DNA of 22,927 bases from assembly GCA_043803685.1 (NCBI GenBank), contig JAZDJU010000067.1:1-22927 (forward strand), in the 5' to 3' direction. The stretch is from Candidatus Omnitrophota bacterium (GTDB lineage: Bacteria > Omnitrophota > Omnitrophia > Omnitrophales > Aquincolibacteriaceae). The translations under genes and the position numbers were made by a program. Below the pieces are notes generated by a model. It had not been told where the DNA came from and did no database searches. It saw nothing but the letters and a program-made list of their open reading frames with translations. Shown here piece after piece: positions 2,757-21,322 of the stretch (position 1 is the stretch's first letter; each line of letters begins with the position of its first letter).

Positions 2757-2924
2757 ATGACACACGATTTATACGGAATCCGGAACTCAAAAGTGAGCGG
2801 ACGCGGTGGGGCACTTACATTTTGTGTCATCCACCAAGGCGATATTCTTTCGGGGTATATGTCCCCGAAGCTTCACCGGGAGCTTCGCCGCACAGAACGC
2901 TCAAGAAAGCGAAAAAATCTATGA
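2757..2924 (+). CDS. Small basic hypothetical protein, 55 aa (MTHDLYGIRNSKVSGRGGALTFCVIHQGDILSGYMSPKLHRELRRTERSRKRKNL)
   Basis: Translated by hand; it is shorter than anything in the ORF track. Shine-Dalgarno AAGGAG (2743-2748) lies 8 nt before the ATG, and the TGA stop overlaps the next gene's ATG (ATGA, 2921-2924). Confidence 0.55.
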   Translation: MTHDLYGIRNSKVSGRGGALTFCVIHQGDILSGYMSPKLHRELRRTERSRKRKNL

Positions 2925-3658
2925 GCAAATTCCATTATTCAACACGCGAGATCGGGGGCGTTGCGGTCTTTGATCTGAAGGGGATGCCGACCTACGAGAC
3001 GGTGCAGGAGGTGACCTGGAAGATCCAACGGAGCATCCGTCGTCATCATTTTCACCAGATCATCCTGAATTTTAAGGCCGTGGGTCCCATTGATACGATA
3101 GGTCTCCGTCACCTTCTGACGGTATGTCTGCGCCCAAAACACAGCGCCCTGTATGGAGCCTCGTCCGATATGGCCCATTTTCTCGAGGAGAATTGCTTCT
3201 CGGGGAAGGTCGATATCTGTGCGGATGAAAAGGAAGTGGCCGAAAGCTTTGGACCCTTCCTCTACGATAAGGACCCCGATAAGCGGTATATCGATAAAGG
3301 GGCAAAGACTCCGAAGGAATCGCTTGGCGCTCAACTGGACGGTCGGAGAAACCACCGTATGCATGTCGGGATTCCTGTGGAGCTGCGGATCTCCAGCGCC
3401 ATGAATGAGATCGTTACGACGAAGGCGATCGTTACAAATATTAGCCAGGGGGGGCTTTTTGTGGAGTATTTGGATCTGGATGCTGCCGCAAAGATCCTTG
3501 CCATGGAGCCTATCGAAAATCTGCCAGTGGAGATCCATATATTTCCAAGCGCTAATTTTCCCGATGAGTATCACGTGGCGGGCAAGATCCGGCGCAAGGA
3601 AGTTCGCAAGGAGCAACTCGGTTTTGGGATAGAATTCCAGGAAAATCCTAGGAATTAG
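2921..3658 (+). CDS. STAS (anti-sigma-factor antagonist-like) plus PilZ domain protein, 245 aa
   Basis: N-terminal VAVFDLKG...IILNFKAVGPIDTIGL resembles the STAS D-S-x-G-L motif with Thr at the phospho-site. C-terminal RRNHR...NISQGG matches the PilZ RxxxR and (D/N)xSxxG motifs, ending in GFGIEF. ATG 2921 preferred over the TTG at 2822. Confidence 0.8.
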   Translation: MSKFHYSTREIGGVAVFDLKGMPTYETVQEVTWKIQRSIRRHHFHQIILNFKAVGPIDTIGLRHLLTVCLRPKHSALYGASSDMAHFLEENCFSGKVDICADEKEVAESFGPFLYDKDPDKRYIDKGAKTPKESLGAQLDGRRNHRMHVGIPVELRISSAMNEIVTTKAIVTNISQGGLFVEYLDLDAAAKILAMEPIENLPVEIHIFPSANFPDEYHVAGKIRRKEVRKEQLGFGIEFQENPRN

Positions 3659-3845
3659 TGCCCATGTGGCATAACTTGTTTGATAGTATATGGTTGTGCG
3701 TCTTTTTATCATTCTCAAGACTATCCCCAATAGGGAATCTCTTTATTGCTTGAGCTTGTAATTTTTGAAATGTGTGTTAGATTTTTGCAAGATTTATTTA
3801 GATTGTAAAAAGTATTAATTAAATGATTTTTTAATGGAGGATTTG

Positions 3846-6800
3846 ATGAAGATTGGACTCAAAGTGGTTGCGGCGGTGACGCTCCTCTGCTTTGTGACGA
3901 CTCAATGTATTTCGGCGGCGCCCGGGGTGGGTATCGAAATAGCCAATCCACGCGAAGTGCCGTCTTACCTGAGCCTTGACGTTCCTGCGGAGCTCGGTAC
4001 GGTGGACTCTCTCTACGAAGCGCCTGCTAGCGCCAACCCACAATTCGTCCTTCATATCCAGAATGCCCATGCGAATTATGAAGCGCAAATGAAGATCAAA
4101 CAGCTTCTGGCTCATATGGACAAGCGCTACGGCTTCAAAACGATTTTCGTGGAAGGGGCTTCCGAAAAGCTGGATGCCGACTATATGCGCCTATTCCCGG
4201 ATGAAGCTCGGAACCTGAAACTTTGCGACGGACTCGCCAAACAGGGCGAATTGACCGGTGCCGAGCTTTATCTGATAGAGCAAACAGGGGCCCGTGGAAC
4301 GGGAAACGGGGAACGAAAAGCATCTAACGGTGACCGTTCATCGTTATCCGAGTTTCGCGGCGAAGCCGTTGAGGCCTTCGGGATCGAAGAAGCGGCGCTC
4401 TACCGGTCGAACTATAACGCCCTGAAGAAGGTGTTCGGCGCGGAAACGGATATCGATCATTTCTTCAAGGGGTTCGACGGTAAGATCGATCATGTCTCCT
4501 CGAAAGTATTTACGCCCGAAACCCGGGAACTGATTGCCGACTGGAAACGGTTCGAACAGGGACGCCGCGCGTTCATGCCCTTCGTTCAAGCGCTTGTTCA
4601 GAAATCCAAAAAAGTTCTGAAAGTTGATCTCGAGAGTCTTTTCGCTCAAGCGGGCTGGCCGCAGATCACGCGTCTTTTGGTCATCCAACGGATGGAAAAG
4701 GATCTGGACAGGACTCAGGCTCTTAAGGAAAAAACAACTCTTCTTGAGATGCTCCGACAGAAAGGCGCTTCGAAGGAACTGGTGGCAACGCTTGAGAATT
4801 TCAACGAGGGGAACATCACGGTCGGAAAGTCCACGAAGGAAGTTTTACCGCGTGTGGTCCTGGAGCGGCTCGCGTCCGAAATGGGGCCCAAGGGTTTCAA
4901 GTTCAGTGACTATCCTTCCTTCAGTCTCTTTGCGGGTTACGTTGCATTAAAGGCGGAGCTGGACCCCAAAGTTCTTTTCGCGGAGATCGAATCCCTTTTC
5001 ACGCAGATGCTCGATGCGCTGGGCAAGGAGCCTGAACAGAAATCACTACTCGCTCTTTACCGGGACGGCGAGCTCGTGCGTAAGCTTCTTCATCTGGAGC
5101 TGACTCGCGCCGAGTGGCGTCAGGTCGTTGCGGACAAGGATCGTCTTACTATTCCGTCGCTCGTTTCGCGATTGAAAGAATGTGTGCAAGTTGCGGATGA
5201 CGGAGGGCGGAAGGCGGAAGGCGTAAAAAATGGTTCTGCTCCATCCTCCATCCAACATCCGATATCCAAGTCTCCAGTCTCCGGTCTCCAGTCTGTGACT
5301 GACGTCATGCCCGAGAAATTTGCCAAGACGATGGAGGAACTCTTTTCGACCGGTCTCGAGTTCTATGATGTCGCGCGTCAGCGTGAAGCCGTCTTCTATA
5401 AAGAAATGCAAAATGCCATGAAAGAGCGCAAGATCAGTAAAGCCATTCTGATCACCGGCGGTTTCCACACCGACGGCATGAGCGACCTTTTCCGGGACCA
5501 TGACATGAGCTATGGCATCGTAACCCCGCGTCTCTCCGAAAAGTCCGACGAAAACCTCTATCGCAAGATCATGCTCCAGAAGAATACCGGAACTTTTGAG
5601 ATCTCCTATCTGGAATCGATCCTGAGAATGGAACCGCTGGCGGCACAGTTGGAGCAAGGCGGTGGAGATGTAACCAACATTGTGCAGGAATTTATGGCCG
5701 TGGCTAATATTTCGGATCCGGACCAGGCTGTGGCGATGTTGCGGGCCACTGCCGAGGCGACTGGAAAGACATTCTTGAATGGAAAAGACGGTAAAGGATT
5801 CGATATCGTTAAAGTGGGAAGTGGTTACAGGCTTGTTCTTCGTGAGCAAAATGCGGCGCCCGTCACTACTCAGATTGGTTCCGTTAAGGTTGAAACCGGC
5901 TCTATTGAATCACTTATGGCACCTGCCATTCCCGCGGATCAGCCTGAGGTTGAGGTCCGTTCCGCCACCCGCTCGGAATTACGCCTGGGATTTAAATCGG
6001 TGCTTTGGACGCTTACGATTTTGACGATAGGCGTCTCTCTTGTTGCGTTCTATCTCCAGTCGGAGAATCAAAGACTTCGAGTTCAACTTGGGGTGGAGAC
6101 ACAGAAGTTGGAACGCAACTTGGATTCCCATGTTGGGAAGCTTGCTCAAAAGCACGGCCTTTTCGACCAGCACGCCGACTTTTGGGTCGACGACAACGGT
6201 ATGCCAAAGTATGGGATCTATTTCTTTCCGAAGGGAGTTGTCTCGGATTGGCAAGCAGAGGTGAAGTCCGGGAGGACCACCGTCTATCAGCTTACGCAAC
6301 GTTTTAACGCCTATCAGGTGGTAAGAAATCTGGCGGATGAGCTCAAATGTCCCGTTCGGACGGAGGCTGAACTTCAGAAATTTGTCGAGATATTGTTAGC
6401 GAAGGGTGAGGCCGGACTTAAAGCTGCGATGAAGGAAGAAGCGAAAAAATGGTCTGACAAAATTCTGCCGGTGGCAGGTCCTTTCGTGAAATTCCGCTCG
6501 GAGGTGAGGGATAGGGATATTGCCACGATTCGTTCGGGCCGTATCTCGTGGGACCTTCGCGGTTTAAGTCTTTCCCTTGTTTTTTGGGGTGGTCTGGCAC
6601 TTTCCTTGTCATTCTCTGCAATTCTTATGTGGGCGATCTGGCAGGGGGATGCTGAGATCCAACCTGAACCAAGCGCTACACCGCCGGCCATCACATCATC
6701 CGTTCGCTCGGAGATGCGTCAGGATCTCATTGTCCCGCAGACTGGCACAGCTGTTTCCCCAAGAGTTGCGGCGATCGATGCGAAGAGGGCTCGTTGGAGG

Positions 6801-9800
6801 GCGGAGAGGGAATCTCAGAAGCTTGAGATTTTGGCGGAAGAGGCAAAGAGTGAATTCCCGTTGATCATCAAGTGGCGGATGGACGGAGGGAACGCGGCTT
6901 TAGGAGAAAAACCGCCGCGCGGAGTGAGAACGGCGAGGACGCCGCCGGGACAGATCGATAGCATCCAAGATGGGCGAGTTTTTTTTAGTAATGGCCTTTC
7001 TATTCCGGTCGCTTCTATTTTGGATTTGCGTACTGCGGATCCCGTTTTAAATTTTTCGGCCAACGTCATAGTCTGGGGTAGTGCGGCTTTCTTGGGTCTC
7101 ATAATTGTTTCGCTCATTTTTGCGGTGTTCAATGTGACGTCTTATCTCCAATCGCAGAACCGAGACATTGATGCCCGACTTGGAGTGCAAGTGGCAAGTT
7201 TAGAAAAGAATAGGCAAGAAAATGTGCATCTGAAGATCCTCAAGCTTGCTCTCGGTGACGATGACGGTGACAGTCTTTTCAATAAACATGCCGACTTTTG
7301 GATTGATGGCGATATTCCCAACTATGGGATCCATTTCTTTACAATGCGAGATATCTCGGATTGGCAAAAGCAGGTAGAGACCGGGAAGATCACTCTCGAT
7401 GAACTCAAGCAGCGTCTAGAGGCTTATGGGGTGGTGAGACAGCTGGCTGATGAGCTCATATGCCCCGTTCCGACACTGGAAAAGCTTGATGAGTTCGTCG
7501 GGATATATTTAAGCGAGGGTATGGACAAACTTAAAGCCGTGATGCAGGAAGAAGCGGTGCAACGATCTCGCGACGTTTTGCTGACGAATTCATTTCTTGA
7601 CAGCCTGACTCGCTCGGAGGTGAGGAGTGATACCGGGAAAGCTGCATTTACACTTCGTTGGCTTCAAGTTTTTTTATTGGGCGCATTTATTTTCACGCTC
7701 GGAGCTTATTTTGTTGAGCTTTGGCTGGAGCTTCGGCAGGCTGAAAATGTCCGAAAAACTGTGACATCTGAACATGTAACGGCTGCGACGGAATTCACCC
7801 AATTATTCCAGGATCTTTCCGGCCTCGATTCGAAAAATTCCGAGAGCACTCAAAAAGCTTTTGAAGGGTTGGTTAAAAAATACGGTTTGAAAGACATTTT
7901 GGTCGGTACCAGTTCGTCAAGCTCCCTTAAGCTGCTGCGCTTGATCGCTGGGGGATATCCCAAGCAGGATCCTGGCCAACCCTTCACAGGAATGATCTTT
8001 GGTAGCGAAGGCGGAAAGCGACTGGTCCTGGTGGGACCAGCACAGGCTGGTAAACAAGCGATTATTCGTTATAAACCGAAATGGGTTGGACAGAGCGGAA
8101 ATGCTTTATGGGGCGGAGTAGATTATGAGGCTGAGAAATGGAATCTTGAGTTATCAACTGGATTTTCTTCGAATGATTGTTTTTTAAAGTTCGGTTCGCC
8201 GGAAGAAGTTGCGGGTGTATTGCGTGAGGCAGAAGCCACTTTACCCCTATCATCGGTGGAGTATCTTATGAATGCCCCTCTGAGTGCGCCTGCCATCCAA
8301 TCCTCCCGCTCGGAGGTGAGGGTGGGTGAGGTGGTGAAGGAGTACGTCCTGCTCGCTCTTTCGGTCGTCTTTTTTGCTGGCGTGGGTTTTCTTGTGCTCT
8401 CGAACCCGCTCGTCGTGAATTTCTTGTATGCGGCGTTGAAGCTACCCATTAGTGCTCCCGCCTTTGGAATTGTGATGAAGGTTCTCGGCGTGCTATCAGG
8501 AGGTGCTCTGGGTCGGATGGTCGCTTTGCGGAAAATGTCACAGCATGTGAATGGGGAGGCTTTGAAAGCTGTCCGAAAGGTGGCGGGAGAATACGGCTTG
8601 CTTAGTGGGATGCAGTTCTCAGAATCTTTAGGAGAGAACGATGTTCAATTGTTTTTGGTCCAGGGGCTTTCCGAACAAGAGCTGAGGAAAAAATTTGAAG
8701 CTATCCAGACTATCCGGGATCTTGCTGAAGAAACTCAATATCCGGGGATTAAAGCGAACCAGAAAATGATGGTTGAGGCTTTGCGCGCTTGGGCGAGAAA
8801 GTTGCTGAGTGAGGGCGAGGACAAAGTCCCGGAGGTCAAGGAGAGGATAAGAAATTATTTTACATACCTTCGCGGGCAGCAGTTGCTTGCCGCGGCGCGT
8901 GTCAATGGTTCAGCGCCTGCCGAAGAGAAGTCCGCTCCTGCCTCTGATGCTTCGGAGGGCAAGCGCTCGGAGATGCGAGACCGTGGGCCAGCGAACTGGT
9001 TTAAGGGGGTGTCCTCGAAGGTATTGCTTGTCGCGATGTTTGTTTTGTTCACGTTCGGACAGTTGTTCCCGCCTGCGCTTGTGAGCCCTTCTTTTGCGGA
9101 GGGTCTGAAAGAGACGATTGAGCAAAGACTTGCCGACCCCGATTTGGCGCCTGGGCTTCGAGCTTTTTATGAAAAGCAATATGTGGAATTAGAGACAAAA
9201 AAGACGCTGCCGGAAACTTCGGATAAAGGTGGTGCGCCGTCTAAAAGTGCTGGAGATAACGGTCCGCGGGCGAAGGATCCCAAGGGCGTAAGCTTCTATC
9301 GTTCCCAACCTGCCGTGGTGACTACGATCGTTGATGCTGTCAGTCGCATTGGTGGAAAATATATGCGGCCCGGGGTGGGGATGCATTCTCCTACGTATGG
9401 CCCCATGGATCATGTCCAGGTGCATCCCGTGACAGGGAAGCCCGTGGGGAACCCGGCCAATTATGGCGCTCCATCCAAAGAAGGCGCTTTTTATCCGGCC
9501 ATGGTCCATTTCATGGAAGGAAATCCGGTTCTGAAAGGATCGGGCATTGAGCAGGTTTATTCCGTCAAGGATTTAGCCGCTGGCCTCCATGTGATGCAGA
9601 AGTTCCAGATGTCTGGGGAAGGCACGCAAACCTATGCTGGTTTATTTCCATGGCACTCCAAGAATGACAATGGAGAGCTTCTTATCGCTGAATATGGCGG
9701 GCGTTTTATGGTTCCAACGCTGGATAACGGACAGATGGCGTTTGGACTTGCCGCAGACGTCGGAGCGACCTTGAAGGCCACCGCGGGCACTCCTGAAAAG

Positions 9801-12800
9801 GATGTGCATGAGACCGCGCTGAAGATTCTTCGGGGCATGAATTTCGGGAAATATGTATTGTCCGATGGCTCTCTTGCGGCGGAATACAATTTCGGGACTC
9901 GATCCCTCGAAGGAAAAAGCGGCCACATGATGCTTTGGACCGAATGGGCCATTCCCGCCCTTTGGGGATATTTAACGGGGCAGGTCCCTGAAAAAGCATG
10001 GCTTTCATTTCCAAGCCCCACTTTTGTCTGGAATTCGCCCGCGGGGCCCCTCGACTTGCCCGAGGGATTTATTGATTCTGTGCATGAATGGTGGATCCTG
10101 CAATATCTCCACAAGACGATCATGAAATCCGAACTGGCGCCGCTTTTGCGGAATTTCTTTTACTATCACGCGACGCACGCACTGAAACACGATATGCCGG
10201 GTTTTGTCGCCACTGAATATTGGCAGGGAGGCTACACCCAAGGCGGTATCTGGTCTGAAAGGCCTGCGGGATCTCCGGCCGCCAGTGTAGGAACCAACCC
10301 CAAACACGAAGATATGGCAACACCCTATGCCACGGCCTTTCTGGCGCTTGTGGCTCCTGAGCCCGGTGCAGCATGGCTGAGCTATTTATTCAAACAAAAG
10401 GACATGGTGAGCGAATACGGTCCCCAGACGGCTTTTCGCCGTGCCGGCGGGCCCTCATGGATGATGTCCGCTGATAATACCTTTGGAACCCTTAACGCGG
10501 CAGGTGAACTCTATCTTCTTCTGAATAAACAGCCCGGCGGCGTCAATGATGCCATTCTCAAAACGCTGGAAAAATATTATGGGGTTTCGGAAGCGCAAGT
10601 GATCGAAGCGTTTAATCAACATGCGCGTGAGATCAAAAAAAGACTCGGGCGAGATTTCAAAGCGATCGAGGCTGCGCGTTTGCCTGGGCCGCCAACGCCC
10701 GGGAATTTCAGTTATACGCCGACAGAAAAAAAGATTTTTAAAGTTCAGGACTTGAGCCTCGCCGATCAGCTGATCGATGTCTGGCATACGAAGAATAATA
10801 AGACGGATTGGGACGCTCATACCCAGACGTTGACCGTCCGCTTCGATTTTTCCAAAAGTCTGGACCGTTATATGTATACGGGTCGGATGATCAAGGCGGT
10901 GCCTATTGACGGTTTGAACTATGTTTCCTTGTGGATCCCGGCTGATTACAAAGGCGGGACATGGCAGATCGAACTCAAAGACGCGGGCGTTGAACTTGCG
11001 CCGCGTTTGAACGTTTCGTCTGTTCGGGAGGGGCGACTGAGTCCCGATAAAAAGTGGAGAGAGGTTGTTTTTAAGACCGATTGGAAAGCTTCTTATCGCG
11101 GGATCGGAGCGGAACTGAATTATATCGCGTTTTCAGCCAATGATACTTCGTGGCATGGGACTCAGGGTGAGATCGTTTTTAAAGGGATGCAATTTCACAA
11201 GAAAGACCCCGGCACCGGCGAATCGATCTCTGCCCCTGCGACAACCGGAGCCCGCCTTGGAACAGCGCCCGAGGTAACCGGAAAAACTTCTGTCAAACAA
11301 AGCGTTCCGCTAGCTGAGATATCTTTAAATGTCCAAACGTTCCAGAAGGCGCAGAAAGCCGGGATCAACGATGTCGCGAAATTTCTGAGGGCGTACTTTT
11401 TACAGAAATACAAATATGAGCTTTCGGACACGGGGAATGTGAATGGCTGGGTGATGGGAATCGCGGGGTGGTACACGAATAGCGCTGATCATGGCGGCGA
11501 TCTGAGTAACCGGTCTTTCTCGGAATTCGAAGGCGAGATGGCGCGGAAGATCGAAGAGGCGAGAGCGAAAAACTATGGCCAGGCGAGGTCTGAAGTTCGT
11601 TCGGCGAGTTTTTATGCCGGGGTGATTGGCTTGGTCATGATGATAACGACAACGGTTGCTCAGGGTGCTGATTCGAGGCAGTTTCTTGAGGAGCGGCTTA
11701 AGGACCCGACTTTGCCTGCCGCGACGCGCCAGGTTCTTGAACAGGAATACACGCGGCTTTTAGAACAGGCGCCTGCGAAGTCCAATGCTCCTGCAACGGA
11801 GATATCTATCAATGCTCAAACGTTCCAGAAGGCGCAGAAAGCCGGGATCAACGATGTCGCGATATTTCTGAGGGCGTACTTTTTACAGAAATACAAATAT
11901 GAGCTTTCGGACACGGGGAATGTGAATGGCTGGGTGATGGGAATCGCGGGGTGGTACACGAATAGCGCTGATCATGGCGGCGATCTGAGTAACCGGTCTT
12001 TTTCGGAATTCGAAGGCGAGATGGCAAGAAAGATCGAAGAAACGAGATCAAAAAACTATGGCCAGTCGAAGTCCGGTTCTGCGCCTGCAGCGTCCATTGC
12101 ACCCAAGCCGTCTGCGACGCCTTCTCAAGCCCGTGATCTGAACGGGGCGAAGGCCGCGATCACAACGGATCTCCAGTCAAAGGGGTTTGCGATCCAAGAC
12201 CAAAGCTGGCTTTCCGGTATCGCTCCGTTTTACACGGGCAATCGACCGCTTGAGGATCTTCAAGGTGAATTAACACCTCAAAAGCTGGATCGGTTGGTTC
12301 GGGATGGAATGATCAGGCCTTTGTCTTCCCAAACTCCGTCTGCCGTACAGCAGCCGGCGGCTGTTGCGCCGACCTCGTTTTTTTCAGCGAGTTTGGCTTC
12401 TCGCAATATTATTGCCTCCAAATTGTTCGGCTTACATCCCGAATCGCAGGGGGATAGGGGGACGGTGGAGGTCACTTCAGAAGGCATTGCGGCCACATTG
12501 TCCTACGGTGGTTGGGCCGGCCTGAGATTTCCGTTGCAACGGATCGGGGACCTGATCCCGGCGGGCACTCAATATTTGATGGTGGAAATGCATACGGCGC
12601 CGCATGGATTTTTCAGTCATGGGAAATACGGTTATCCGGAAGGGGCTTATTTTGAATTCAAACGCGACAGCGCCTATGTGGTAGGGGGCGGAAAATTAGA
12701 AACAGCGGCTGGATATCATGCGGAATATGCCGACGGTGCCCGGGTGACGCGCTACTTTATTCCAGTCAAGACATTCGATCCGCAAAGCAGTATGAACTTT

Positions 12801-15800
12801 TTCGGGATCTCGACGCACGGGTTTCATGGCAATACGGGCATGCGTGTGGAAGTTCCGGCCATCGTTCCTCTCACGGGCGATGAGTACAAGAAAATTATGG
12901 CAGAAGAGATCGAAACCAGTTTTATCGGATCGGGGACAAGCAAAGTCACCATAGCGAAAGGTTCTACCGGTCGCTCGGAGGTGAGGGCGGGCTCTCTGCG
13001 TTGGCCTGTGGATGGGGATCAGAATTCAGCATGGGCTCATCTATCAGAGGAAGAATATCTTTCTTGGGGATCTAAGCTCTTCAGCGGATTGCGTAGGCTG
13101 CAATTGAACCCGTTGGAAATTGGATGGCTGAAAACGACCGGCTTTCCATCAGCGGTTAAGCGAATTGCGATTGGGCAATTGCATAGTTACTCGGTTCCGT
13201 ACGGCATGAAGCTAAGTGTTGACTATCGCAATGCGGCAACGGGGGCTTGGGGAACATTTGTCTTTGAACAGCCGGGCGAAGACCAGTGGGTTGCTTTGCC
13301 GACAAAAGCTGAAACTGTGGTTCAAGTGCCGGATAAGAAAAGCATTCCGGCGCTTGTCCGGCAAGTGCTTCTGTGGCGAAAAACAATGATCGAGCAGTTT
13401 GCTGCGGCGCGCGGGGACGCGGCACAGGGGATCGTCTATTCGGACGGAAGACGCTTTGCCCAGATCAGGGATCTTTCTTTGGCGCAAGAGCTCCTGGCGC
13501 AAGGCATCCTGGCTTTTTATGACAACAGACTCGTACTCGTGGGTGTCACTCCTGACGATTTTGCAGATCGTGGTGGTGTTCAGGTTATCCGCTCGGAGAT
13601 GCGTAAGCCATTGAAGCAGGCGCGCCTAGGTCTATGGCAAAAGGTCCCTCGTACAAGAAATGGGAAAGTCGTTCAAGAGTTCTGGTGGCTCGACGCTGCA
13701 AGAAAGTGGCTTCCTTTGACTTTGGGCGTACTGGCGTTTGTGTCCGTGGGGTTTGTTACTCTCAAGTATTATGTTGACGTACAAGAGCAGCAGCATTATG
13801 CGGTTACCGTGCCAGTGAATCAGCAGATAGCCGAGGCGCTCGAGATCCCCTATGCCGATTCTCCTCTGTTCGACAAGTTGCATTCTCTTTTTCCTGAAGC
13901 CCTCCCGGAACTAAAGGCGAAAGGTGTTATCTCAAAGGATGAAGAGGAATCTTATAATGTTGTGGAGTTTGCGAAATATGTGAAAGATTTTAGTGAGGAA
14001 AATCCTGATAAGCTTTCAGACTCACTTGCTCTGAAGATCCTGGACCTTTCCGCATGGATCGCGCAGTTGCCGAGGTCCGAAATCCGCTCCACAAACCGCT
14101 CGGAGATGAGGGGGCAGGGGGGCTTGGAGAGGCTTCGATCAATTCAGCGTTCGGTCGCGAATTGGTATAAGCGGTGGACGAAGTCTGTGGTGAGTCTTGA
14201 TCGTACGTGGCGTAATCCTGAGGTGGTGTCCTATGAGCCGGCTTGGTATGCTCCGGCGCGGGAGTTTGGAAAGAGCATGAGACGTCTTGCGCTGGGAGTC
14301 GCATTGATCGGTCCTCTCGCGTTTTTTGTGATGTTCCCTGCTGTCCAGTACGGTTTGGATGCTGTGGGGACATACATAGCAAATGTCGAAGAGGAATTGC
14401 GGCAGGCAGAGGAAATCAATCAAATGCTGGAAAAGGAGCTCAATATTCCACCGAGTAATCCGGAACTATCCAGCTCTTTTCTATCTCTCTATATGCAATG
14501 GCTTGTAGAAGTAGAAGAAAATTACAATTTCCATGAGAATGAAACGCTTTACGGCTTCTTAGTTTTTCTAAGCGGTTTAGGGAACGAGAAGATCTTTAAA
14601 CAGACGAAGGATGCTGGGTATTCGGATGGATTTTTAGGTAGGGCGCGCTTGTTGTGGCTGCAGTTGGCTGATTCGAAGGGGAAGGCGATTTTGGAAGGGC
14701 TTGCGAGGAAAGCCGAGCTCGAAAGCTATGTCGGCCAGAAGGTTAATGTTTGGTATCTGTCTGATGGAAGGGAAGCGACCTGGAGGTTGGGAACCAGACC
14801 GGCCGATGCGGATCTTGTGGTCGGAACGCTTATTCAGATCAGTACAAATGAGATCGTGGTGCTGAAAGCTGATGAGACCCTTCAGGTGATACCGAATAGA
14901 TCGCTTTTCGATGTGAAGCCGGTGTCGCCGGATGGATTGCTTAAGATGGTAGCTTCCCGCTCGGAGATGCGGTTGACGTCAGGGGCCATCTCAAGGATGC
15001 AAGAGCGTGTGGAAAAGGGGCTGGATCGGTGGTTGCAGGCGCAATCGCATCTGGAGAACCCTGCTCCGGAAGTCCGCCGGCAGCTTCAGCAGCAAGCTTT
15101 TGCGCATTTCGGATTTTCCTGGCAAGGTATTTTGAACAGGGGTTTGAATGATCCTGAATCGCAGGAGTTGAAACCTGAAATGCTTCGCTCTGGGGATGTT
15201 CTTTTTGCGCGTTCTCGTGAGTCGAAACAGAATGCGGTCTTGGTCGTACAAAATATTGAAAATGATGGCAAAGGCCAGTTTGTGAAATGGACTTTGGGGG
15301 GTAAGAAGGACGGCGCTTATTTGCATGATCAGGAGTTTTTTGAAGGGGCTCTTTCGGATTTTCTCGTTAAGGATGTATACCGGTTAAATAGGGTCGTGAG
15401 GGATATTATTAGCGGAATTGTCGGTCCCGGTAGTCCGCATATTCTTCTTCAGAATGTTCTCGTCGAAACTATTCTTGGCACAGGAAATCTTGAGGCCATG
15501 ATATCGCTCGTAGAAAAGCGAGGAGGGCAGGAGCGAGTTACAGAGCTTGCTAAGCTTTCGGCGTCCGCGGAAAAGACGAATGAAGGAGGAGAAGTTTTAA
15601 CTTTGGACTCTCTCTCAAAAAGCCTTGATAAACAAGTCGAAGAGTTGTTTGGGTTGCAGGCTATTAAGCAGAGGAATTCTCTCATAGAGAGACAGGACAA
15701 AGATAGAGAGTATAAGGATAAAGTATTGAGGAGCGAAGGTGCAGAAAGGGACAGATCCTATGATGTGCTTCAAAACACCTCTGACGACATCGGCGCCTCC

Positions 15801-18800
15801 TTGGTGAAGCTTCAGGAGTTTATCGGGAATTTGTCTGCTGAGAATTTGCGAGTTGAATTTGAAGTCTTAAAGGGGGATCGCAGTGTAGAAATAGTCCGGG
15901 ATCTTCAGGAGATCTTCTCGATTCTGAGTACAATGCGGGGCATTGTTGCGGGCGTGCCGAAAGAAATAAAGAAAATGGATCAGCTGAACCAGAAGAGGGG
16001 AACTTCCGCTTTGAAGCCGGTCGTGAGTAATCTGGAGGGACTCCAGGCGGAACTCAGCGCTTTTGGTAAAGTCTTGTCCAGGGCTCTTGCGGGTCTTCAG
16101 GCTTTTGATCCGGACGTTGAACAGCTGACGCCAACGACTCTGGAGCAAATCGAGGCGGCGCTAAAGGCTGTTGGGGAAATTGATGCGGTGCTGAAAGCCT
16201 TGGGACCGAATCTTCTGGAGTGGCGCGTCAAGGGTGTAGCATTTAATGGAACGATGAGCGTCTTAGAGTATGAGCTGCGGAAAGTTCTGCTCGCTTCTTC
16301 CCGCTCTGAGATGCGGGCGGAAGTGGTGGAAGGGCAGGATGTGAAGGCGACGATCGAGCGGCGTATCCAAAACGCGAGCCAGAATCTGCTGTTTGGAGAT
16401 TTGATTCCTGCCAATGCTCCACTGATTTCGGCTCTTAAGGTTGCAAAATTTAACGATTGGAATTCTGTTTCAACTCATGTGAATAATGCGATTGTGAAGT
16501 TGGAACCCTTCCGAAATTCGACAAACATGACGATTCGGAATTCGGCTCGGGCAGCGTCGAGAGATTTGCAAGAGGCTCTACCCTTAATCGATCAGATGCG
16601 TTCTGAGGCGAGGGGGAACGCTGTGATGACTGATGATGAAGTGATGAATGCTTTGCAGGGGCTCACGGACCGGGTAGCAGCGCTTACGACGCCCGAATTT
16701 ACCGCAAAATATTTTAACGATCCCAAGGGGGATGCAAATGTCAATCGTTTTACCCAGAATCTCAAGGCTGCGGAATTGTCTTTGAGGTTTGCGTTGCTGC
16801 GGCTTGACAAGGGTGAGCTAGTGGATGAAGTTGTTCGGGCTCACGGGCCCGAGACTCCCTTGTATCTGGCGATGAAAAATCTCACAGCGGCGTCTGTGGG
16901 AGTGTCTCGTTCCTTTGGGAGAGTAGCTTATCGTTTTTCGGAGGCAAGAAAAAATGGCAGAGTAGTGGGTAGCTTGGGTTACACCGGTTCGCTGGTCGAA
17001 GGTCTGACAAGAAAAACGGGTCTCAGGCCTGACGCCCAACTCATGGAAGAATATTTTGTAACGACGGAAGGTTTGAAGGACGAGATTCTTGCGGTAAAGA
17101 ACAGTGTCCGTTCGGAGGTAAGGGCGAATCTGGTGGGTGATCCTATGCACATCGCCAGTTTCTACTATGCCATCGATCCGGCAAAAGATCTTGCTGAGCA
17201 GAAGTCTGAAACAGAGGCCTTTCGCCAAGCGCTTCTCCAAGGTTTGGAGGCGACTCAGAATGATGCTCGTCAGTCTGGAAGGTCGGCAGACTCTTTTGAG
17301 GTTGAGCTGTTTACTTCGGTCATCACAGAAAATGTCCCGCAAACAGACGAACAATTTTTGTCATATCTGCGTTCCGCGCTGGACTTCATTTACCAATACA
17401 ACGGTACCTATGAGCTTATTTTGCTAAACAAGTCACTGAGGGATATTTTTGAAAGTGCAACTGAATATGAAGACGCAGCGTTGGCGAACGAGCATTTGAC
17501 GAACATCGAGAACATCTGGGCCTTGCAGCACAGTGTGTATGTCGCGTCAGCCGTCAGGTTTGTTGCGGATTATGAAAGAAAGCGCGGTTCTACTTCTCGC
17601 TCCGAAGTGAGGACGCCTGAGGATGATATTCGTGGTTACATCGCGAGCGCGTTAGAAGATTTGGAAACTGTTGTTTATCTGAAATATCAGCAGAAAGTAA
17701 GTGAATTGAAATGGGGGCCCTTAGCGTCTGCGCAGAAAGCTGCGAAAGCTGGGGATTGGAATAGTGTGACAAAATATGCGAAAGAGGCGTCAGACATCTT
17801 GTTGGGGGTGGCGAATGATATGAGTGCCAACGTCAATGCCCGGGGGGCGGCTGTTCTTGTGAGGCGTGATCTGGTCCAAGCTCAAAGAGTGATCGCGAGG
17901 ATGAGCCATCCAGCAGAAGGAAGGGCGGGAGGGGCTGAGCGGGCGACCCTTCTTGATGATTCTGTCGCTTCGGAGATCCTTATGCGGATCAATAATGCCG
18001 CGCTAAATTTGAAGGACGCTTCACTTGAGCCGTATAAGCAGGTGCAACTCGACCCTGCGGTTCGGGCCGCCAAGGAGAAAAAATGGGGCAGGTTGGTGGT
18101 TTTTGCCGAATGGGCCACCGGTCAATTGCAATCTTTAGCGCCAGGTAATGAGCAGGTAAAATTCGCGCAGGAGGATCTTCAGGACGTAATCTCCTTGATC
18201 GATCCCGACCGCTCCGGGTCGAGTCAGCAGCTTAGTGTCAAAAGCGCGATCGCTGCGGTGGAAGCTGTTCAGAGAAGTCTCCCCAGTAAATTGGAGCCGC
18301 TTGCGGGAGTTGGCGAAGACGCTGGTGCGAAAAACGGCGATGTTTCTCTCAAGGCACTGGATCTGACCGAGATAAAGGGTGCGGCTGTTGGAGGGATCGG
18401 TACTGACATCGATGATGTTGAAGCCAGCATCAGGTTTTTGGCGGAAAAACTCGATCGTCTGCGTGAAGTGAAAGGCTATAGACCTAGTAATGTCGAAAGC
18501 GCTGTAAAAGCTCTTCGCGCTATTGCCAACGATCTACGGGCCACACCTCGTTCTGAGGTGAGGGGAGGGCTTGCAAATGATATTCATGAATTGATGAACA
18601 TTTGGAATGATTTCGGTGGCTATGATTTCTTCCCGGCAGGTTTGCCGTTGCCTGAAGATTTTCTGAAGGCATATCGAAATGTTCTCGGGCAGCTCCGGAG
18701 TCTGGATGGCGTTTTGCGCGATGAGGCGGAACACGCAGGATTTTTAAATCTTTTAGATGAAACTATAGAAAGTCTTCAGATGCAAACTAAGGGGGTAAGA

Positions 18801-20264: not shown

Positions 20265-20492
20265 ATGACTCTGACTCGAACGACCGTTTATTTAGACCCT
20301 AAGATCCACAGAGCGATCAAAATGAGAGCGGCTCAGATGTCGATGAGCGTTTCCGAAGTGATCAGTGAAGCTCTGCGATTGTCGCTCAAAGAAGATGCCG
20401 TTGACCTGGGGGCGATCCAGAGCCGCGTTTCTGAGCCGTCCCGTTCGTATGAGGCGGTACTCAAGGATCTGAAAAAAGATGGCCTCCTTTAA
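20265..20492 (+). CDS. CopG/ribbon-helix-helix antitoxin
   Basis: RTTVYLDPKIHRAIKMRAA...SVSEVISEALR fits the RHH pattern. 75 aa; overlaps the downstream toxin gene. Confidence 0.85.
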   Translation: MTLTRTTVYLDPKIHRAIKMRAAQMSMSVSEVISEALRLSLKEDAVDLGAIQSRVSEPSRSYEAVLKDLKKDGLL

Positions 20493-20742
20493 GATCTTTT
20501 TCAAGGCAAGCGCTGAAAAAGAACTGCGTCAGATCCCGAAGCCTTTCCTCTCAAAAATCCTCTCAAAGATAGCGGCTTTGGCTGAAACTCCTCGTCCTTG
20601 GGGTGTTAAATTGATGCGGGGTGAAGAGCGTTTTTACAGGCTAAGACAGGGGGACTACCGGATCGTCTATGAGATCGATGATCAGACTCGTACAGTGACT
20701 GTGATCAAAATTGGCCATCGAAGGGAAGTCTACGATAGCTGA
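20479..20742 (+). CDS. relE: RelE/ParE-family type II toxin
   Basis: AEKELRQI...PRPWGVKLM...YRLRQGDYRIVYEIDD...VIKIGHRREVY; 87 aa. Confidence 0.9.
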   Translation: MASFKIFFKASAEKELRQIPKPFLSKILSKIAALAETPRPWGVKLMRGEERFYRLRQGDYRIVYEIDDQTRTVTVIKIGHRREVYDS

Positions 20743-20888: not shown

Positions 20889-20956
20889 GTAGGGACATTC
20901 GTTGAAACGGGTAGTTTTCAGGATCAATGCAACTTACATCATTGGCGGGGGTGCTT

Positions 20957-21322
20957 ATGGAACCGGAAAAAGACATACGTTTTACCGAGAAAAAGGTAGA
21001 TGAGAGCTGGAAGGAACAGGCGGAGAACATTAAGGCTAAGGCCGCCGCCGCTCAACCCGCTCCAAAAGCCAAGCCCGCAGAGACATCCAAGCCTTTTCTG
21101 AGCCTTGTTCAGTCTCTTGGCTATCAAGCGCTTATGAATCTCGGAGAGATCCCTAATCCGATGACCCAGCAGACGGAGCTCAATCCCGAAGGCGCGAAGG
21201 AGGCGATCGATCTTTTGATCGCGATCCGTGACAAGACCCTGGGGAATTTGAGCGATGACGAAAAGAAAATGCTCGATACCCTTCTTACCCAACTTCAGAT
21301 CAAGTTCTCCCAGACCGTATGA
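20957..21322 (+). CDS. DUF1844 domain-containing protein
   Basis: FLSLVQSL..QALMNLGEIPNP...AKEAIDLL..IRDKTLGNLSDDE..ML matches the DUF1844 pattern. ATG 20957 follows a G-rich SD-like tract. Confidence 0.8.
   Translation: MEPEKDIRFTEKKVDESWKEQAENIKAKAAAAQPAPKAKPAETSKPFLSLVQSLGYQALMNLGEIPNPMTQQTELNPEGAKEAIDLLIAIRDKTLGNLSDDEKKMLDTLLTQLQIKFSQTV

Follow-up and report, generated by a model that had tools for sequence, protein, structure and literature searches.

The window considered here is the whole 22,927-nucleotide stretch (positions 1 to 22,927, forward strand) of contig JAZDJU010000067.1 from a Candidatus Omnitrophota bacterium (assembly GCA_043803685.1), whose genome amounts to 2.89 Mb in 133 contigs. 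It is a chromosomal stretch in which pheT, a gene for an MgsA/RarA-type ATPase, a STAS-PilZ gene, a giant open reading frame (ORF), a lysyl-phosphatidylglycerol-synthase-like gene and aroQ follow one another in this order. The giant ORF is the subject of this study. Its product starts with a hydrophobic leader and a conserved head domain and continues as a series of modules separated by the pentapeptide RSExR, in which x is variable, and the hydrophobic segments of these modules begin soon after the motif far more often than chance allows. We propose that the ORF encodes a polyprotein-like precursor, the modules of which would be released by cutting at or next to RSExR. The features are given below; junctions were located by a regular-expression scan and the leader by hydropathy and alignment, and hydrophobic segments are Kyte-Doolittle windows of 19 residues with a value of at least 1.6.

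3834 to 20066, forward strand: giant ORF (P0001), 5,410 amino acids (aa), 7 cysteines in all
3843 to 3920, forward strand: N-terminal hydrophobic leader, signal-peptide-like, aa 4-29
3966 to 5753, forward strand: conserved head domain, aa 45-640, candidate Tiki/erythromycin-esterase-type hydrolase
5970 to 5984, forward strand: junction RSELR, first motif after the head
5997 to 6056, forward strand: hydrophobic segment aa 722-741, 4 aa past the junction; lysine plus arginine (K+R) count 4 in the N flank and 2 in the C flank
6495 to 6509, forward strand: junction RSEVR
6561 to 6641, forward strand: hydrophobic segment aa 910-936, 17 aa past the junction, in a module of just 70 aa
6705 to 6719, forward strand: junction RSEMR, followed by a soluble stretch of 115 aa
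7065 to 7130, forward strand: hydrophobic segment aa 1078-1099, the sole cluster far from a junction
7611 to 7625, forward strand: junction RSEVR
7659 to 7715, forward strand: hydrophobic segment aa 1276-1294, 11 aa past the junction
8307 to 8321, forward strand: junction RSEVR
8343 to 8513, forward strand: helical hairpin, aa 1504-1523 and 1537-1560, K+R bias +2 then -2, as a hairpin predicts
8964 to 8978, forward strand: junction RSEMR
9021 to 9086, forward strand: signal-peptide-like segment aa 1730-1751, 14 aa past the junction, then SPSFA/EG; start of an 874-aa module
11586 to 11600, forward strand: junction RSEVR
11601 to 11660, forward strand: signal-peptide-like segment aa 2590-2609, 0 aa past the junction, strongly hydrophobic core of ~12 residues, ending AQG/AD
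12972 to 12986, forward strand: junction RSEVR, no hydrophobic segment after it
13590 to 13604, forward strand: junction RSEMR
13707 to 13763, forward strand: hydrophobic segment aa 3292-3310, 34 aa past the junction
14073 to 14111, forward strand: tandem junctions RSEIR (14073) and RSEMR (14097), 3 residues apart
14286 to 14345, forward strand: hydrophobic segment aa 3485-3504, 58 aa past the junction
14958 to 19148, forward strand: seven further junctions (14958, 16302, 16599, 17109, 17598, 18549, 19134), modules without hydrophobic segment
19134 to 20063, forward strand: C-terminal module, aa 5101-5410, with relatives at the extreme C-termini of homologues

RSExR is present at 18 sites in the protein, against 0.092 expected from its composition and a maximum of 2 among 1,000 shuffled sequences; with the pair at 14073 and 14097 counted once, these sites define 17 junctions. 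Besides the N-terminal leader, the hydropathy profile contains nine internal hydrophobic clusters, among them the two-helix hairpin. Eight of the nine begin within 60 aa after a motif, and six within 20 aa. When the motifs were placed at random, a mean of 1.6 clusters began within 60 aa after a motif and a count of eight was reached in none of 100,000 placements. The same outcome was obtained with the permutation confined to aa 700-3708, so that the enrichment is not due to both features sharing one half of the protein. The initial annotation, made from the letters of the sequence, had placed hydrophobic segments soon after the motifs at 5970, 6495, 7611, 8307 (two helices), 8964, 11586, 13590 and 14097 and had called for a permutation of the distances; all of these sites are right and the closeness is indeed beyond chance, but the helix at aa 1078 (nt 7065), 115 aa past the 6705 motif, had been overlooked. 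Its description of the modules from 14958 onward as soluble is borne out by the lack of any hydrophobic segment beyond aa 3504. Separately, the stretches 6021-6467 (aa 730-878) and 7113-7580 (aa 1094-1249) are 45% identical, the domains after the first helix and after the aa 1078 helix being paralogues.

The link between motif and hydrophobic segment is one-sided, and it recurs in relatives. Among 95 homologues, 115 of 312 clusters begin within 60 aa after a motif (43.1 expected), and 49 end within 60 aa before one (43.5 expected), which is chance level. A set of 80 further cluster representatives gave the same picture, with 93 of 244 clusters beginning within this distance after a motif (38.1 expected) and 41 ending before it at chance level (37.6 expected). 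The homologue sets are related proteins rather than independent samples, and the asymmetry between the two sides serves as a control within each protein. In six other giants of the same genome, between 2/3 and 4/4 of the clusters follow a motif; a related-locus search with the giant protein alone returned 2 loci. The arrangement differs from that of a C-terminal sorting signal of the sortase, exosortase or rhombosortase type, given that a long domain follows each helix and that clusters are not enriched before junctions. RSExR is nevertheless a general separator and not a juxtamembrane feature, because a hydrophobic segment follows only 8 of the 17 junctions.

The units bounded by the motif correspond to whole proteins. 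None of 20 Pfam domains in 12 homologues contains a motif. In relatives, an HPr module of 92 aa has its domain beginning 2 aa past the motif, and a receiver module of 132 aa has a domain that begins 4 aa past the motif and ends 7 aa ahead of the next. The 205 modules of 17 further giants include complete PGI (E = 4e-224), GDH, PFK, an epimerase and other enzymes, each within one module, and a whole methyltransferase is likewise bounded by junctions in relatives. Modules are 191 aa long at the median (interquartile range 104-353). In the giant protein of the window, the 16 inter-motif fragments yielded no Pfam family at E up to 0.01, and the modules are mutually unrelated except for two internal duplications. 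Besides the head, only the C-terminal module (aa 5101-5410) has relatives, and these stand at the very C-terminus of the six closest homologues of the protein (P0003, P0004, P0005, P0006, P0010 and P0011). The architecture is that of a constant head, variable cargo, the middle modules being unique to this protein, and a subfamily-specific tail. One ORF thus unites several whole and unrelated protein units, and a conserved short site marks every border; both are properties of a polyprotein.

The largest signal-bearing unit, the 874-aa module (8964-11585), offers a lead only as to its function: its nearest clusters in a protein-feature atlas are glucoamylase-like PF10091/DUF3131 (score 0.94, 195 shared features), which suggests a glucoamylase-like module. 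It has no Pfam match even at E up to 10, its single-sequence structure model is unusable (predicted local distance difference test, pLDDT, 33), and a word-based search of limited sensitivity among proteins of 480-1,530 aa found no standalone homologue. The end of this module (11295-11585) also recurs inside the next one (11778-12068) as a 97-aa repeat of 88% identity, which looks like a recent internal duplication across the junction region.

The two segments at aa 1730-1751 and aa 2590-2609 deserve closer consideration. By inspection, the 8964 module starts with RSEMRDRGPANWFKGVSSK, then VLLVAMFVLFTFGQLF, then PPALVSPSFA/EG, and the 11586 module with RSEVRSAS, then FYAGVIGLVMMI, then TTTVAQG/AD, the slash marking the possible cleavage point. 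The short hydrophobic region and the small-x-small site that follows (SFA/EG and AQG/AD) make both segments look like cleavable Sec signal peptides, as the initial annotation had suggested. Behind each site lies a homologous sequence of the form ExRLxDPxL...R...ExxY, with E = 2e-6 when the leader is included and 36% identity over 28 aa (E = 8e-6) when the leader and the motif are removed. The two segments are consecutive, with no hydrophobic cluster between them, and an uncut chain would therefore place the homologous mature parts on opposite sides of the membrane.

This observation bears on the main rival to proteolytic release, namely an uncut giant polytopic membrane protein. It would have arisen by in-frame fusion of complete genes, the old signals being kept as transmembrane (TM) helices, and RSExR would tag the linkers and serve not proteolysis but, for example, docking, a folding pause or hand-over to the translocon. 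The signal recognition particle and Sec can insert internal hydrophobic segments during translation with the chain left uncut, and the absence of cleavage evidence, together with a charge bias that is mixed across the family, is compatible with such a chain. A 2026 preprint, in its available text, also reads these proteins as single chains that combine a signal peptide with TM helices, or that have TM helices, and suppresses internal signal calls (10.64898/2026.06.07.730766). Apart from the order of the two homologous parts, two properties of the segments are difficult to reconcile with an uncut chain. The core of the 11586 segment, ~12 residues followed by AQG/AD, is short for a membrane span. 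Moreover, the K+R difference (N minus C flank) of the first helix of each module is +2, +3, 0, 0, +2, +2, +1, +2 and +4, and the sole negative value (-2) belongs to the second helix of the hairpin; one alternating uncut chain would need about half of these values to be negative, so that the absence of any negative value among first helices favours independent modules. We consider the uncut chain unlikely, although it is the reading that has to be weighed most seriously against cleavage.

Further charges were calculated at the module starts. Ahead of the helix, the net charge is +8 in the modules at 13590 and 14097; the module at 12972, which has no helix, starts at +3. Among the eight modules from nt 14958 onward, seven start with a net charge of 0 to -4 and the last (19134) with +1. 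These charges, too, favour independent modules. There is good support for the proposal of the initial annotation that every module is constructed like a free protein and brings its own targeting signal at the N-terminus, since hydrophobic segments lie after and not before junctions, modules correspond in relatives to whole enzymes, and two consecutive leader-like segments precede homologous mature N-termini. The other half of that proposal, exposure of new N-termini by cleavage, is a hypothesis.

The motif itself is widespread. In this genome it is found mostly in giant frames, which have 25, 18, 18, 15, 11, 11, 9, 9, 9, 8, 7 and 7 copies each, with fewer in the rest. The wider form R[SA][ED]xR was found at 1,106 sites in 104 of 120 homologues, in which the commonest gapped pentamer is usually RSE.R, RAE.R or RSD.R, the serine being replaceable by alanine. 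A strict motif of five residues at more than 1,000 borders in unrelated contexts is hard to square with the passive linker that an uncut chain would require. At the DNA level, the RSExR pattern was counted 203 times in this genome against 65 for the reversed control. The excess over control is found mainly in the window's own family and order and in head-bearing genomes only; in none of the 20 head-less genomes listed does the pattern exceed the control. An excess is also lacking in many head-bearing families from other parts of the phylum, which fits lineage-specific separators. In some head-bearing giants without RSExR (P0040, P0042, P0062, P0108), AQSLG, GASLG or SLGxE is repeated at apparent borders, one copy lying 8 aa ahead of a receiver domain and another just ahead of a helix.

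The codons of the motif raise the question of whether the junction could act at the level of RNA or translation, internal initiation or transcript processing yielding separate modules without proteolysis. At the 156 RSExR sites of this genome, x is V or M in 105 and its codon is ATG or GTG in 76. The first Arg is encoded by CGC or CGT (CGY) at 87% of these sites against 39% in the background (p = 5e-30), and Ser by TCN at 97% against 68% (p = 1e-18). The same bias recurred at 222 sites of 17 giants from other genomes (loci L044-L058, L012 and L013), with CGY at 86% and TCN at 98% (p = 5e-40 and 3e-21), and the last Arg has a mild preference for CGG or AGG. Because the Glu codon is at background usage in these 17 giants, the bias is not explained by a common descent of the junction cassettes. 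The TCN preference may stem from a one-step exchange between Ser and Ala codons. Against a junction read as nucleic acid, x is V in 25%, A in 18%, L in 17%, M in 12% and S in 8% of cases across the family, the AQSLG and GASLG separators of other lineages hold no start codon, and the window has no Rfam match. Such a mechanism is in our view highly improbable. RSExR works at the protein level, all three of its conserved residues being encoded by several synonymous codons. A Shine-Dalgarno or internal-start function of the junction was considered separately and rejected, as GGAG immediately abuts the ATG or GTG of the x codon and codon choices within one site are independent (GGAGG seen 23 times against 23.5 expected), both of which argue against an internal ribosome-binding site.

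The head domain is the second constant element of these proteins. The part shared among the giants of this genome is the first ~600-700 residues, it is N-terminal in each complete giant, and behind it the motifs begin at aa 583-814. Among frames of at least 2,000 aa, four or more motifs are present in all 13 that bear a head, as opposed to none of the eight head-less ones (Fisher p = 4.9e-6); seven of the latter have no motif, and the eighth, interrupted by a contig end, has 2. In a collection of 1.84 billion proteins, a head profile retrieved 9,760 cluster representatives (E up to 0.001), and among the matches listed the head is N-terminal in 150 of 150 cluster representatives; of 201 genomes sampled across the phylum, 149 contain it. 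The sequence GGFH, at the end of the conserved positions, occurs in 118 of 120 homologues. In these 120 the first motif lies mostly 50-250 aa past GGFH, the extremes being 52 and 5,431 aa; in 16 the head is followed by no motif of this kind.

Twelve paralogues with 22-48% identity keep I75, Q76, A78, H79, A84, E107, G108, G142, E144, R517, G542-G543-F544-H545 and a few other residues, including two invariant His and two invariant Glu (H79, E107, E144, H545). Membership of the Tiki/ChaN/Ere superfamily was guessed from these conserved motifs ahead of any fold search. The AlphaFold model of the head (pLDDT 71.6; predicted template modelling score 0.62) has an alpha/beta core into which a helical stretch of ~345 residues (about aa 187-531) is inserted. 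With an exhaustive structural aligner, five of the six best of 48,161 chains were EreC (Z 9.2), HopBA1 (9.0), 2QGM (8.3), 2RAD (8.2) and ChaN (8.0), where 2QGM and 2RAD are two Ere-like proteins of Bacillus cereus; 155-180 residues were aligned across the superfamily matches, and the parallel-sheet core resembles that of the solved TIKI/Ere/ChaN members at moderate Z. The best structural matches of the head core are thus in the TIKI superfamily (EreA-C, Bcr135/136, ChaN, HopBA1, Tiki, TraB/PrgY, RRSP), and its invariant His, Glu, Glu and His recall the 2His/2Glu set of that superfamily, a likeness drawn from conservation. The head departs from the superfamily in its ~345-residue helical insert and in the lack of recognition by sequence models. 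On the basis of the predicted structure, it looks like a divergent Tiki/erythromycin-esterase-type hydrolase. Since the fold includes RRSP, a proven sequence-specific endopeptidase with a 2His/2Glu centre according to the accessible text of the report (PMC6254334), the head is a reasonable, albeit unproven, candidate for the cutting enzyme. A complex prediction of the head (aa 45-640) with a 40-aa junction peptide gave a score of 0.01, which is evidence in neither direction.

The leader is shared with paralogues. One of the same kind is found in the other 10 complete paralogues that start no later than the hydrophobic segment, an AXA site being clear in several of them, and the C80 paralogue, cut at the first ATG, is without leader in the alignment. 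In 11 of 12 paralogues (alignment A1) the leaders share F-x-x-T-S inside the hydrophobic core, with F20 nearly invariant; ordinary signal peptides do not usually have such a shared pattern, which may point to a dedicated route. In the 13 giants with a head, cysteine makes up 0.10% of residues, a ten-fold depletion relative to the 1.12% of 2,053 other ORFs (200 aa or longer), and it is again 0.10% in 128 cluster representatives; the protein of the window has no cysteine past aa 1449.

These properties could indicate that the N-terminal leader, with the conserved C-terminal module, directs export of the whole chain and that cutting takes place outside the producer or in prey; the post-junction segments would then be stop-transfer anchors or insert into a foreign membrane, and would not be Sec signals in the producer. 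Classic AXA leaders ahead of the head in paralogues, the lack of a helix between head and cargo in most relatives, the depletion of cysteine and the conservation of the C-terminal module are all consistent with export, and Omnitrophota are described as predatory in the accessible text of a 2023 preprint (10.1101/2023.11.21.568195). The cargo of relatives, on the other hand, is mostly of the cytoplasmic housekeeping type (PGI, PFK, GDH, HPr, receiver), with no obvious extracellular role, and the window contains no secretion-system genes. Export of the intact chain seems to us improbable. It can also be speculated that an ultra-small bacterium with a predatory or parasitic way of life exports the proteins as effector polyproteins, in which the Tiki-like head cuts RSExR outside, the segments insert into the prey membrane and the enzymes act in or on the prey. 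Low cysteine, leader and conserved C-terminal module would in that case be adaptations to threading a chain of several thousand residues out of the cell; we regard this scenario as decidedly improbable.

The explanation that we favour, with slightly better than even confidence, is that the chain is cut at or beside RSExR and that the modules are released as polyprotein products; we infer the cut, the bond, the enzyme and the compartment. Proteolytic release is the most economical explanation for a motif that stands at module borders, is linked on one side to hydrophobic segments and co-occurs with the head. The gene would accordingly encode a precursor of a very large Omnitrophota family, composed of a leader, a Tiki/Ere-like head and unrelated protein-sized modules with RSExR between them. 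Hydrophobic segments would lie right after junctions because membrane and exported modules keep their own N-terminal signal anchor or signal peptide, like free-standing proteins. A cut, most likely at or next to RSExR and with the head as the best candidate for the enzyme, would then allow the modules to insert or to be exported independently. The 8964 and 11586 modules would be trimmed again by signal peptidase I, and the eight modules from nt 14958 onward, together with the 12972 module, would stay soluble.

Several points weigh against this proposition. To our knowledge, nobody has seen a cleavage product, a neo-N-terminus or a size shift of these giants. The hydrophobic segments come from a hydropathy window and not from a trained predictor. 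The link to junctions covers a subset of modules: nine of the 17 junctions in this protein are without a following hydrophobic segment, as are ~86% of the 205 modules in the 17 other giants. The family-wide positive-inside counts are weak, 41 against 22 with the motif arginines and 32 against 27 without them. An N-terminal hydrophobic segment is present in 1 of 26 cytoplasmic-type modules and in 25 of 165 unannotated ones, a difference in the expected direction that is not significant (p = 0.21); the single positive among the former comes from a UDP-glucose dehydrogenase, whose first strand is hydrophobic, and the lone Peptidase_S8 module carries a leader. With regard to the head, Z scores of 8-9 lie in a range that the aligner calls middling, Foldseek against PDB gave no match at E up to 0.001, and no match was obtained in Pfam (E up to 10), in NCBIfam or among PDB sequences with a single sequence or a profile. 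Finally, the compartments conflict: a head behind a classic export leader would be outside, junctions ahead of N-in anchors would be inside the cytoplasm, and most relatives have no helix between the head and cargo of the cytosolic type. This leaves two readings: the head may act ahead of export or with none at all, or the entire chain may leave the cytoplasm, the latter being the basis of the export scenarios above.

The neighbouring genes were also inspected. A small overlapping gene pair just 3' of the giant (20265-20742) resembles a type II toxin-antitoxin pair, the product of the first gene being of the ribbon-helix-helix type (RHH_1, E = 5e-4, slightly below the cut-off of the family) and that of the second a ParE-family toxin (E = 5e-15). 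A gene for a DUF1844 protein (20927-21322, E = 5e-22) lies between this pair and the lysyl-phosphatidylglycerol-synthase-like gene. The STAS and PilZ protein gene (2822-3658) is directly 5' of the giant. PilZ genes often adjoin giant genes, downstream in the cases given in the accessible text of the 2023 preprint (10.1101/2023.11.21.568195).

Giant proteins of Omnitrophota have been described before. West-Roberts et al, 2023 (10.1101/2023.11.21.568195) suspected, in the available text, that they are cleaved, with C39 and S8 domains as candidates; the cleavage points were unknown and their lack blocked a module-wise analysis, and the proteome re-analysis of one giant protein reported there leaves cleavage aside. 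The available text of the 2026 preprint (10.64898/2026.06.07.730766) contains no word beginning with 'cleav' or 'motif' and treats internal signal-peptide calls as artefacts. As far as the accessible parts of both preprints go, the published giants share with the protein of the window the phylum, very long ORFs, many TM helices and mixed enzyme domains, but RSExR, the head domain and the restart of hydrophobic segments appear in neither. Among the papers listed in literature searches, none describes RSExR strings or Omnitrophota polyproteins; the preprint supplements, which may contain domain maps, lay outside these searches. The present analysis contributes permutation and asymmetry statistics on three data sets, the argument from consecutive homologous leaders, a phylum-scale count of the pattern and the codon bias.

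Whether the Omnitrophota giants are one chain or are cut, and where, is open in print, and RSExR provides concrete candidate cut sites. The junction tag, the one-sided signals and the head together predict ten membrane or exported products and about eight soluble ones from this gene. Should the cuts prove real, a bacterium would produce part of its proteome in the manner of many RNA viruses, modules from one frame being routed to different compartments, and topology prediction and annotation should split such genes at the junctions first.

Two kinds of known systems invite comparison. Bacterial precursors in which a protease of the same chain frees several domains are exemplified by MARTX and by the gingipains (RgpA/Kgp/HagA), the latter cutting after Arg or Lys. 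Unlike the protein described here, these are secreted virulence factors of few domains, with cysteine protease domain (CPD) or clostripain-like folds, no strict pentapeptide separator and no internal signal peptides, and neither RTX repeats nor a CPD was recognised here, the 16 fragments being without any Pfam family. The second comparison is with polyproteins of the flavivirus type, which contain internal signal sequences and in which the viral protease cuts at basic sites just upstream and the host signal peptidase downstream. They differ in that the Omnitrophota giants form a chromosomal bacterial family that counts thousands of members, with as many as dozens of paralogues in one genome, that the candidate protease has a Tiki/Ere fold instead of a chymotrypsin-like one, and that cleavage is here a proposal. 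They are alike in that one frame would specify many mature proteins and a short basic motif stands right before internal signal or anchor segments, and the 8964 and 11586 modules would likewise need both a cut at the junction and a cut by signal peptidase.

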